Shown here piece by piece: positions 11,130-14,700 of a stretch of 64,000 nt of DNA; within the stretch, counting starts at the first letter, position 1, and each line of letters starts with the position of its first letter. A program made the position numbers and the translations under genes. The notes below the pieces were generated by a model that worked only from the letters and a program-made list of their open reading frames with translations, was not told the origin of the DNA and searched no databases. This DNA is from Iphione sp. A-MEVVRFRX5 (Eukaryota). Location of the stretch: positions 42,222,001-42,286,000 of the forward strand of contig OZ320322.1 of NCBI GenBank assembly GCA_976226885.1, written 5' to 3'.

Positions 11130-11137
11130 TATATAAA
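11130..11137 (+). promoter_or_regulatory. TATA box of the spliced PolB gene
   Basis: TATATAAA about 44 nt upstream of an ATG in perfect Kozak context (CCACCATGG, 11174). Confidence 0.6.
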
Positions 11138-11173
11138 GGTGTACTATCAATAGCTAACTTAATGTTCTCCACC

Positions 11174-11703
11174 ATGGCTCAAGCTGCAGTTGACCTATTG
11201 AGGAGACTTGTAGCCTCTTTCTCATCCGAGGAGGAACTCATCTCATGGGCTGCAGCGAAGGGATTGATGAATAATCCCATCGTATTGGAGAGACAAAATG
11301 AATTAAGAAGCAATCATTTGAACAGTAGTGAGGTAAGTCCCCAAAAAACTTTCTACTGTACTAATGGATAATTTAACAATTGATTACTATACTGTATATA
11401 CATTTATATAATTCACAAATCATTGCAGGTGGATCTATTGAATAATTTATTGCTACCAACATCCATGCCTTCACAAACCCAGCAATCTCATTCCTCGGAT
11501 AATGTCTTCACACCAAGCAAACAGGATGTTAGTTTTCATTCGAAGACTGATCAAGACGTAAGTAAAGTTTTTTTTTTTTTCTTTGGTATGGTTTAGTAGA
11601 ACTGAGTTTTCTAATCTTTGGATTTGTGCATCACATCATGTACATGTATTCCTTGTATAGACTTCTCAAGATGATCGTACGGCTGATGAAATCACCCAAC
11701 ATT

Positions 11704-11744
<41 letters not shown>

Positions 11745-14700
11745 GCACCACCAGCAAGAACAACCACAACTTCTCCTCCAGCATCAGTTGCAGTGTCGTC
11801 CGATGTAGCATCTGTCCGATATGAGTCTATTCCGGGGCCAAGTCACCGACCAGTGAGTTGAATGAGCTGTTCGACTGAAATAATGATAGAAAATGTATCA
11901 ATTTCCATACGCGTGAGAGTGTGTGCATGTATGTGCGTGTGTGTGTGTGTTTGGATGCAGTCAGTTATCCTATTTTGTTCTGTCTCTCTCTCTCTCTATG
12001 TGAAAAATAAACAGCCGGAAGAAGGATTGGTGAGAGTACTTCCAAGAGAAGAAATGCAGAGTCTATATTCCCTGTCATCATCTCCCTCATCTGACGAGAT
12101 AGAAGAAGTAAGTAAAAAACCTGTGTATTTGTGTTTCCTTACCTGTTTACTGCGAGCCAGCATACTGCAATCTGTTTTTTGTCATATACTCGTCGTATGA
12201 AGTTCCTATAAGAAAACAAAGTACCATGAAGATAACTTACTTCGATTTTTTTTTTAAATACAGGTTGTAAAACAAAGGCAATGTGAGAAGTGCTTGAAGA
12301 AATTTAAGCGTCAAGGCAATGCCAGGCGACACAAAGAAAGCTGTCAGCAATACAAGTGCTCTAAGTGTACCCGGTCTTTTAAGAAAGCTTCACTTATGCG
12401 AAGGCATCTTCTAAGTCACTCACACAGATTAGAATGGCGATGTAGAAAATGTGGCGATTCGTTCGCGAATAAGCGTGAGTTGTATCTACATCGAGGAATC
12501 CAACACGGGGGCGGAGGGAATGGAACCACACTCCATGAAGAGGGTATACCCCTCCAGGTCGAACCGTGGAAGGATGGTGAGCGAGGAAAGAAGGACAAAA
12601 GTAAAAAAAGAAAAAGGGACAAGACCCCAAGCGAGAACAATCAGCATCCACCCTGGTGCAACAGGGAAGGGGAGACCATAGAGCCAGAACTGGAAAGGGT
12701 ATATAGAGCCAATCAGCGCCACATCCTGGCCCACCATACAGATAGAGAAATCACCACCGATTACAATTTCCCCACCAACGATCTGTCACGTGGTCCCCAG
12801 GAACTTCACCAATTCTTGGAGACCATTTTCGAAAGAGAAGACCATACCTTCAAGGTGAATATGTCGTTCGGTATGATATTGCGTAATGTTCAGACGGGTG
12901 AATATCGTTATTTCATCCCCTATAGTAACAGTATGGTATTTAACGAACCCATAGTGGTTTCCCGGGCAAGTGACCTGTCTGAGGTAATGGACACCATAAG
13001 GGCAGTGGACCCGGAGAATTACTTCACCCGGAACCGACCAGACACTAAGTGGCAGGTAGCCATGATAACCAATGTCGTATTTTTCATTACGCGCACCACG
13101 TATCTGATGGGTCGAGGTTTCCTTCCCGAGTTTGTGCGAAATAAACGATGTATCACTTCCTTAGATGATCATAACGATGCTCTTTGCGCCTTTAGGTGTC
13201 TCGCAGTACACCATCAAGAAAACGACGTAGAAGGAGCCGTGAAAGAGTACTATTTGTCATGGCGTCAGTTCCAATCAAGTCTAGGAAACCGCACACTACC
13301 TCCCGACCCCAGTAAATCTAGGGGTGTGGACCTGCGCGACTTGACTCTCTTTGAGGAATGTTTCCAAGTCGGCATCTATGTATACGAATTGAAGATGAAT
13401 GGAAGCATATCCGTCATTAGGAAACCTTTCTCTCGTTTTCCTGACATTATGCACCTTAACCTTCATGCAGGTCACCTCTCTTATGTCAATGACTTCGAGA
13501 CATACGCCAAGAAGTTTCAGTGCCGTCTCTGTCGACGATGTTTCGGCAAGAGACATCACTTTGCGAGGCACTCCAAAGTATGTCCCCTGAGAACACGTTA
13601 TGTGTACCGAGGGGGATACTACAACAGTCCTTCCACCATATTCGATGATCTGGAAGGACTGGGAATAGTCGTTTCCCCTGAGGAACGGACTTATGAAGAT
13701 TTCGCCGTATTTGACTGCGAGGCTATTCTCAGAAGACTCGATGGAGAAAGAGACACCCCTAGTGTGACGTGGATTCATCGACATGAGACCATCTCAGTCT
13801 CCGTGTGCAGCAACGTACCTGGTTTCACAAATCCTCAGTGTTTCCTACACGAAGACATGAAAACGCTAGTTAATCAGATGATCGAATACCTGGAATCTAT
13901 TCAGGAAGAAGCTCTAGAGAGAGCAAAACGAAAATGGGGCGACGTGGTCAGTCAACTGGAGGAACTACTGCAGGAGACAAACGACAAAATAACGAGACAG
14001 TTGGGAGATGCACCCGTTCAAGATCATGTCGTCGAAGACGACGAACTGGTCGATTTCGTCTTGCATCGTGAGGACGAAGAGAATGTCGACGATGATGCGG
14101 ATGCTGCCGGCAACGATGATGCTGCCAATGCTGCTGGTGGTGCTAACGATGATGATGATGCCGATGATGAAGATGACAGAGGTGGTCACCGCCAGGAGGG
14201 GGATCGGACCCACCCTGCCCTGAAGTATAAGAAGACGGTAGAAAAAATACAAGGTAGGTTCTATACCTACATGAGTTCGCTACCCGTCTTGGGTTTCAAT
14301 TCTGCCCGCTACGACCTGAACTTACTGAAGGGGGAACTCTTGAGAACCCTCCAGGTGGACGAACCAGGTTCATTTGTGATCAAGCGAGAGAACACGTACA
14401 TCTCCATTTCCACTGTACGCTTCAAGTTCCTGGACATATGTCAGTATCTGTCGCCTGGTGTGTCCTATGCTCGCTTTCTTAAGGCGTACGGTGCTTCTCA
14501 AGAAAAGAGTTTCTTCTGCTACGAGTACCTTGACTGCCCCGAGAAGTTGAAGGAGACAGAGCTTCCTCCACACGAGGCATTCTACTCTTGCTTGAAAGGA
14601 AGTAACATTTCCATCGCTGATTACGAAAGCCTCCAAGAAGTATGGAGGAAAGAGAACATGCAGTGTCTGGCAGACCTTCTGATTTATTATAACAACCTAG

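Follow-up and report, generated by a model that had tools for sequence, protein, structure and literature searches.

Background

The core genes of Polinton/Maverick elements have so far been described as intronless. In the parts of the published accounts that we consulted, intact Mavericks of vertebrates are reported to have no introns, which accords with Kapitonov and Jurka 2006 (Barreat and Katzourakis 2021, PMC8097293), and in nematode Mavericks the core genes are intronless while cargo genes carry introns (10.1101/2022.07.12.499685). Here we examined a 64,000-nucleotide stretch of the genome of Iphione sp. A-MEVVRFRX5 (contig OZ320322.1, positions 42,222,001 to 42,286,000 of the forward strand; hereafter the window, numbered from its first letter), which holds an element of the same class. 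Its core replication gene, polB, very probably begins with an inherited, spliced coding leader, judging from the sequences compared below, and coding introns are predicted for this gene in every intact family examined, in contrast to the vertebrate and nematode elements as those sources describe them.

In the excerpts available to us, two other kinds of intron are described from related elements: introners, which have spread into maverick-polinton-like elements of dinoflagellates, in most cases once these had integrated (PMC11957031), and group I introns in polinton-like viruses of cryptophytes (PMC12220804). We found no description of a spliceosomal intron in a Polinton polB in the literature searched, which was consulted in part, with subscription papers, supplements and Repbase outside its scope. 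None is described in the consulted portions of PMC8502044, 10.1101/2023.08.22.554363, 10.64898/2026.10.13.758929 and PMC6431247, nor in those of 10.1101/2025.04.19.649669, PMC11296320 and 10.1101/2024.03.25.586562. In the second of these (Jeong et al. 2023), the text seen on introns and splicing does not concern spliceosomal introns.

A predicted spliced leader on polB

The polB gene is predicted to consist of five exons on the plus strand, as follows.

TATA box TATATAAA, 11130-11137, plus strand, 44 nt 5' of the ATG
Exon 1, coding part, 11174-11332, plus strand, 159 nt, predicted 53-residue three-helix domain
Intron 1, 11333-11428, plus strand, 96 nt, GTAAGT...CAG, phase 0
Exon 2, 11429-11557, plus strand, 129 nt, 43 codons, Ser/Thr/Gln-rich linker
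Intron 2, 11558-11660, plus strand, 103 nt, GTAAGT...TAG, phase 0, missing in the sister family L020, L026-L029
Exon 3, 11661-11852, plus strand, 192 nt, 64 codons, Ser/Ala tract with a PGPS motif at its end
Intron 3, 11853-12014, plus strand, 162 nt, GTGAGT...CAG, phase 0, with the weakest acceptor of the four
Exon 4, 12015-12107, plus strand, 93 nt, 31 codons, acidic, with a recurring S[LVI]YS[LI]SS motif
Intron 4, 12108-12263, plus strand, 156 nt, GTAAGT...CAG, phase 0
Exon 5, 12264-17240, plus strand, 1,658 codons: zinc fingers, terminal protein (TP), vOTU protease, exonuclease, polymerase and NADAR domain

The start codon at 11174 lies within CCACCATGG, and a further in-frame ATG is found 12 nt upstream. 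All four introns have GT-AG ends, GTRAGT donors and YAG acceptors, the U2-type spliceosomal pattern; every one contains stops in all three frames, at an A+T content of 61-74%. Each of the four leader exons has a length divisible by three and is free of stops, and together they supply 191 codons in frame with the open reading frame (ORF) at 12264, for a full predicted spliced PolB of 1,849 residues. The acceptor of intron 4 enters this long ORF 30 nt 5' of a TTG at 12294, and the first methionine of the stop-to-stop polB ORF is at 12396, inside finger 2.

An original prediction, made from the DNA letters of the window, had proposed this five-exon gene, and on direct check every coordinate it gave proved right, as did its TATA box and its donor and acceptor words. 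So did its statements that the exons are stop-free multiples of three and that the last acceptor precedes the TTG by 30 nt; its added leader of about 190 residues comes to 191 codons by count. The gene model itself is strongly supported by conservation of sites and frames among the copies, and the use of the junctions in RNA stands as a prediction. What did not hold is the idea that splicing completes, or restores, the finger CEKC...HKESC: finger 1 is of the C2HC type and lies wholly within the stop-to-stop ORF, and what splicing would do is make it translatable.

The original prediction had further argued that four matching phases with open frames are unlikely by chance, and donor density, a frame-blind parser and shuffled sequences all bear this out. 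In the 1,090-nt leader, GT[AG]AGT occurs exactly four times on the plus strand, every occurrence being used as a donor, against 0.4 expected from its 47 occurrences in 128,000 nt (both strands of the window). A splice parser given neither stop nor frame information returned these same four introns with a score of 37.5, where none of 10 local shuffles exceeded 19.1.

Conservation among close copies and diverged families

A DNA search of the host's own genome recovered 17 other full-length copies. Sixteen of them keep the start codon, the TATA box and each of the eight splice sites, the exception being L018 (72%). By hand count from the alignment of L002-L016, 29 of the 35 distinct intron indels are not multiples of three, and all nine exon indels are, with none in exons 1, 2 or 4. 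Relative to the window, intron 2 and 33 bases of exon are missing from the sister family (L020, L026-L029), 136 nt in all. The reading frame survives such a loss only with the intron spliced out, which supports splicing, at a chance expectation of one in three.

More diverged relatives of exon 1 are abundant in the host genome. Among 342 candidate places 150 were scored, and exon 1 matched at every one, at 37-100% identity and with a stop in four. The 342 places, with many identical copies on different contigs, point to a large Polinton radiation in this genome. We examined 47 loci, 40 picked across score classes and seven fetched earlier. In all 47, exon 1 starts at an ATG and ends in phase 0, as Glu followed directly by GT, at the same donor place; a finger-polB ORF lies downstream in 46. 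Among these 46 modelled loci, the ATG context has A at -3 and G at +4 in 45, and a TATA-like word stands 40-70 nt 5' of the ATG in 34. A tree built by a quick method, from which L036 with its broken ORF was omitted, resolved the families into two deep clades (support 99 and 100).

The parser models of the 46 loci, made with hand-set generic splice weights and a free choice of phase, contain three introns in 27 cases, four in 16, five in two and one in a single case, and 150 of their 156 introns are in phase 0. Models with phase-1 or phase-2 introns (L018, L037, L043, L061, L064, L065) and the odd models L039 and L053 were kept in these counts; several of them look like fits around breaks in old copies. 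For 22 family representatives picked by hand, the frame-blind parser placed 69 of 78 introns in phase 0 and left 19 of 22 chains in frame, and the real score exceeded all 10 local shuffles in every representative (119 of 211 introns in the shuffles were phase 0).

Selection on the leader was gauged from protein-guided alignments, which bias the ratio of non-synonymous to synonymous divergence (dN/dS) downward. For exon 1 it is 0.08-0.22 in 8 of 11 pairs, close to the TP/vOTU value, and for the linker exons mostly 0.2-0.6. The last acceptor falls 3-8 codons 5' of the first finger cysteine in intact families. The first methionine of the last exon may be found anywhere from residue 1 to 214, lying inside the TP domain in L020 and L022. 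The peptide obtained by reading through into intron 1 is not conserved. In a separate observation, silent divergence (dS) between the window and L020 is 0.06 in exon 1 and 0.45 in TP/vOTU, which suggests a recent exchange of promoter and first exon between families.

The exon-1 domain and its relatives

The original prediction had described the leader as disordered and rich in Ser, Ala and acidic residues. This holds for exons 2-4, which are rich in Ser, Pro, Ala and acidic residues, and fails for exon 1, whose predicted fold comprises three helices over 53 residues (pLDDT 89). As modelled, exon 1 is a selected, conserved folded domain.

No named family could be assigned to it: the best Pfam match among 21 members had E 0.02, and PDB sequences gave E 1.2. 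Nor was a matching fold found, with nothing from Foldseek, a best VIA score of Z 5.8 to generic helical bundles, and unnamed clusters only in the Atlas. A likeness to Cnu/Hha was set aside, its Z of 4.4-4.8 lying within helical-bundle noise.

A search of 1.84 billion representatives gave four matches (P0021-P0024). The top one, P0021, was rejected as a Cys-rich repeat protein that the exon-1 profile does not match. P0022 and P0023 each carry three tandem copies of the domain, and in P0023 these stand in one unbroken ORF directly ahead of the fingers, TP and vOTU. Because P0023, a distant relative, fuses three copies to polB in this way, the exon-1 domain belongs to the polymerase chain. In P0024, residues 2-150 hold three copies before an exonuclease/endonuclease/phosphatase domain, which we take to be of the kind carried by LINE (long interspersed nuclear element) retrotransposons. 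Since P0024 joins the copies to an endonuclease domain, the exon-1 domain may be passed as a module from one mobile element to another.

We also inspected 11 metagenome loci (L072-L082), two of which (L072, L073) are cut off. L078 carries the same domain (hhalign 95%) on a 51-codon exon, followed by a predicted 562-nt phase-0 intron and then the fingers. L076 has a phase-0 first exon unrelated to the exon-1 domain, and L074 and L077 have acceptor-like sites 5' of the fingers, the exon upstream of the last acceptor in L074 being out of frame. The proteins P0007, P0008 and P0015 have acceptor-like starts, a hint only. The viral contigs scanned contained no relative, and weak tests revealed no longer protein that carries the exon-1 domain.

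The linkers, otherwise unalignable, contain recurring short motifs: PGPS, PGSS, AGPS or PxPxTS, usually near an exon end (exon 3 of the window; L020-L052), and the acidic S[LVI]YS[LI]SS in the last small exon (exon 4 of the window; L020-L052). The PGPS-type motifs presumably resemble those bound by MATH domains, for example of USP7 or SPOP.

Zinc fingers, putative terminal protein and predicted cuts

In the last exon the fingers precede TP, which is followed by vOTU and then the polymerase. The features at its start are:

Three zinc fingers, 12282-12506, plus strand: C2HC at 12282-12344, C2H2 at 12357-12419, C2H2-like at 12441-12506
QHGG motif, 12501-12512, plus strand, fitting the adenovirus-protease consensus; predicted cut releasing leader and fingers
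Putative TP domain, 12648-13103, plus strand, assigned from position, an alpha/beta model and the published domain order; bounds approximate
LMGRG motif, 13104-13118, plus strand, at the TP/vOTU boundary; second predicted cut
vOTU protease domain, 13119-13500, plus strand, Cys motif 13182-13199, His motif 13470-13484; bounds approximate

The structure model of the TP region is of middling confidence. For the vOTU region the closest PDB counterparts are OTU domains from viruses and from human (probability 1.00, with a best E of 0.006), and the Cys and His are kept.

The consensus of the adenovirus protease, in the part of the source consulted, is (M/I/L/N/Q)xGG-x or xGx-G, the hyphen here marking the cut (PMC6048507). 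A match stands directly after finger 3 in all 22 families, compared with 61 matches elsewhere in 20,714 residues, or 0.003 per residue, and 12 of 20 outside proteins have it at this place too. It lies in a low-confidence, unstructured stretch of the model, and the residues after the Gly-Gly vary freely among families. At the TP/vOTU boundary, where the text available to us already predicts cleavage (10.1101/2024.03.18.585575), 19 of 22 families have GxG or GG and 12 of 22 the strict consensus.

A pre-terminal protein model and its alternatives

We favour an explanation in which polB carries a spliced leader and a front piece, comparable to a "pre" piece, is cut off ahead of TP; taken as a whole, we regard it as reasonably probable. 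A host-type TATA promoter would drive transcription of polB, and the host spliceosome would remove the four phase-0 introns, yielding the 1,849-residue polyprotein. Its front 274 residues would comprise the three-helix domain, a floppy motif-bearing linker and the three fingers. A cut after finger 3 would free this piece, and a second at the TP/vOTU boundary would leave a TP of about 200 residues. The parts of this explanation differ in strength. That the four junctions are used is highly likely on the comparative data, and splicing is likely to be constitutive, reflecting inherited gene structure rather than a switch. We lean slightly towards the view that vOTU or the adenain-like protease of the element cuts at the Gly-Gly motif behind finger 3, by analogy with adenovirus, which trims its pre-terminal protein (pTP). 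A regulatory role of leader and fingers, as the original prediction proposed, is plausible. More tentatively, before or after the cut the fingers might attach to the ends or promoters of the element's DNA, with the helical domain and linker motifs drawing in nuclear proteins of the host, a role suggested by the make-up of the front piece: fingers for DNA, a helical module and short motifs for partners. Broader still, and doubtful, is the idea that across a wide invertebrate Polinton clade the front end acts as a separate nuclear protein, with a new helix module, host-binding motifs on skippable in-frame exons, and fingers, freed by the viral protease at the Gly-Gly.

Several observations weigh against a conserved, spliced and cleaved leader. 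Two older copies have damaged leaders: exon 1 of L017 contains a frameshift and a stop, and in L018, as aligned, the start codon, donor 2 and acceptor 3 are non-canonical. Every exon indel lies within a triplet tract, where slippage by multiples of three is expected anyway, and most intron indels sit in simple repeats. Branch-point-like words within 70 nt of the acceptor are present in two of the four introns. For the closest pair, exon 1 gives a dN/dS of 0.79, two of the 11 pairs are saturated, and three short linker exons reach 0.79-2.56. Since the families form two deep clades, the phase counts stem from a small number of inherited introns rather than from 150 events; the copies being related, they mirror perhaps three to five ancestral introns. 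Leaderless forms are possible, since 2 of 22 families have a methionine ahead of finger 1 and, in the family of the window, Met 45 of the last exon precedes TP. Among the metagenome loci, the leader of L075, some 740 residues long, contains no intron, and in L080 and L082 the gene begins behind a TATA box with an ATG immediately 5' of the fingers; introns and helical domain are thus not required across the clade, and judged from these loci the leader is variable in its wider membership. At the putative first cut, the last His of the QHGG motif doubles as a zinc ligand and so accounts for part of the motif's conservation, and the strict motif is missing, by the pattern used, in 8 of the 20 outside proteins.

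The last two points would also fit a gene spliced as modelled whose leader and fingers stay attached, an uncut extension tethering polymerase or TP to DNA or chromatin, with the Gly stretch as a flexible linker. Gly-rich linkers are common after zinc fingers. Bidnavirus pPolBs (protein-primed PolBs) and some from mitochondrial plasmids are, in the text consulted, unprocessed (10.1101/2024.03.18.585575), which adds to the case for attachment. We nevertheless consider it unlikely, given that a known protease consensus fits in every family while the residues behind it are free to vary, that a second GxG marks a boundary where the same partly consulted source predicts a cut, and that vOTU retains its Cys and His. 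Splicing might instead be a control point, with regulated retention or skipping of phase-0 exons, which keep skipped forms in frame, switching the polymerase. Such control would suit the near-uniform phase, alike in families with three or four introns, the stop that any retained intron brings, the placing of recurring short motifs on separate exons and the weakness of acceptor 3. Uniform phase needs no selection, however, since intron phase is inherited and rarely changes. Gating of polymerase expression by splicing, which the original prediction had suggested, gains no direct support either: the sites are near-consensus, the read-through peptide of intron 1 is not conserved, relatives manage with an intronless leader or none, and the finger-2 methionine lies upstream of TP. 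On these grounds we judge a control point quite improbable.

It is very unlikely that the upstream exons are not joined to polB at all, forming a separate small gene or going untranscribed while polB starts at an internal ATG or TTG. Met 45 could serve as such a start, and core Maverick genes are reported as intronless in the portions seen of PMC8097293 and 10.1101/2022.07.12.499685. Against this, the scattered first methionines offer no conserved alternative start, the last acceptor keeps its place just before the first Cys in intact families, a frame-blind parser yields a chain in frame, and P0023 fuses the exon-1 domain to polB in one ORF. Least credible of all is a gain of the introns after integration, by host decay or by intron-making transposons, leaving them without a role in the active element. 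Introners in dinoflagellate maverick-polinton-like elements offer a precedent, as far as the consulted part of that report goes (PMC11957031). In polB, by contrast, the first donor and last acceptor are common to two deep clades and many dispersed copies, and the four introns form no repeat family together at a 30-nt minimum; conservation of the sites across copies and clades brings this account close to refutation.

The element and its other genes

The element that carries polB has the following bounds.

Polinton/Maverick element, 8136-32036, 23.9 kb, terminal inverted repeats (TIRs) beginning AGTAGT, 6-bp target-site duplication (TSD)

The TSD reads ACTACG on both sides (8130-8135 and 32037-32042), and the inverted terminal arms are 88 nt long and 89% complementary. 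Downstream of polB, the ATPase, integrase, candidate capsid and protease genes are single ORFs with their own ATGs. The integrase (18776-19951) combines an rve domain (PF00665, E 1.5e-8) with a chromodomain (PF00385). The adenain-like protease matches Peptidase_C5 at E 0.0027, weaker than Pfam's own cut-off, and has His, Asp, Gln and Cys in order. A P-loop ATPase ORF has a weak Pox_A32 match (E 0.019), and the candidate capsid ORF of 446 residues is without a Pfam match. In polB itself, all six motifs of a protein-primed family B polymerase (Exo I-III and Pol A-C) were located by pattern, and the top structural matches include, besides OTU proteases, adintovirus, bidnavirus-like and mavirus polymerases. 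PF03175, which marks the Alpha class of adintovirus PolB, has no match in the window's pPolB at E up to 1, and is carried by 2 of 20 relatives; the NADAR domain at the polymerase C-terminus (16833-17213, plus strand, E 3.8e-12) is common to 7 of 20.

Other features of the window are recorded here in their own right. The gene upstream of polB (9726-10622 and 10786-10818, plus strand) has a weak SOCS-box match and a phase-0 GT-AG intron (10623-10785) near its 3' end; both sites of this intron are kept in 13 of 13 copies, with intron indels of any length and exon indels in multiples of three. Two minus-strand ORFs (29547-29218 and about 29037-28321) resemble one spliced gene, with a GTAAGT donor at about 29219 and a pyrimidine-rich CAG acceptor at about 29036. 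A head-to-head pair (22769-23773, minus strand; 24416-25606, plus strand) is predicted to encode membrane proteins with Cys-rich heads and Ser/Thr-rich stalks. Three 31-nt direct repeats stand just inside the left end of the Polinton (8294-8421), and a tandem pair of about 185 nt occupies its A+T-rich right arm (27481-27840). Outside the element, a host exon (57673-58326, plus strand) encodes an immunoglobulin I-set domain.

Comparison with known systems

Polinton polymerases are as a rule annotated from single ORFs, and with the core genes regarded as intron-free, many would lack their true N-terminus in databases and structural surveys; at this locus some 190 residues, a conserved domain among them, escape ORF calling. 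Reliance on a TATA promoter and the spliceosome would place replicase expression in the host nucleus, as in adenoviruses, which bears on whether animal Polintons replicate alone as adenoviruses do or depend on giant viruses. If the broader, doubtful idea set out above is true, the front piece would be the Polinton counterpart of the "pre" part of adenovirus pTP, and both ends of the mature TP would be fixed. The two Gly motifs predict these ends, about 200 residues apart, and no such report for a Polinton was found in the literature consulted in part.

The order TP, vOTU, exonuclease and polymerase, the vOTU Cys and His, and the GxG at the predicted TP/vOTU cut are shared with the Polinton pPolB of Krupovic et al. 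2024 (10.1101/2024.03.18.585575). Elements with that pPolB or with the adintovirus OTU-PolB of Starrett et al. 2021 (PMC8502044) also have in common with this one an rve integrase with chromodomain, an adenain-like protease, TIRs and a 6-bp TSD. The N-terminal OTU-like domain on adintovirus PolB is present here too. Among the differences, the consulted parts of the two papers describe no region upstream of TP, spliced coding leader, helical domain or pre-TP cut site, and the window's pPolB is without a PF03175 match at E up to 1 and ends in NADAR. Fingers ahead of TP are not new: Drosophila-associated adintovirus 2 has a C2H2-finger protein, which is the best structural match.

Between polymerase motifs A and B the window's pPolB has a nuclease-like insert (motif 15273-15305), as in pPolB2, and we take this insert to resemble a VSR nuclease. 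According to the portion consulted of Jeong et al. 2023 (10.1101/2023.08.22.554363), Polintons of marine nematodes and molluscs share a pPolB2 that carries a VSR nuclease insert; here, two named relatives are bivalve proteins.

The closest parallel to the leader is in adenoviruses, whose maturation protease trims pTP to TP. In the accounts seen in part, the start of E2B pTP in human adenovirus 37 is supplied by a 9-nt upstream exon, with predicted splice sites (PMC2397415), and adenovirus E2B mRNAs are rare (PMC7851563). There, as is predicted here, a short upstream exon gives the protein its start and the maturation protease uses the same consensus, so far as those accounts go. Adenovirus pTP is, however, a separate protein with a three-codon first exon, whereas here four exons would contribute 191 residues including a folded domain, and TP is fused to polymerase and to a vOTU that appears active; the parallel drawn here between the two leaders is one of layout. 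Set against the published descriptions as far as we consulted them, the predicted coding introns in a Polinton core gene depart from the intronless picture, and the helical domain and cleavage motif are what this locus adds.

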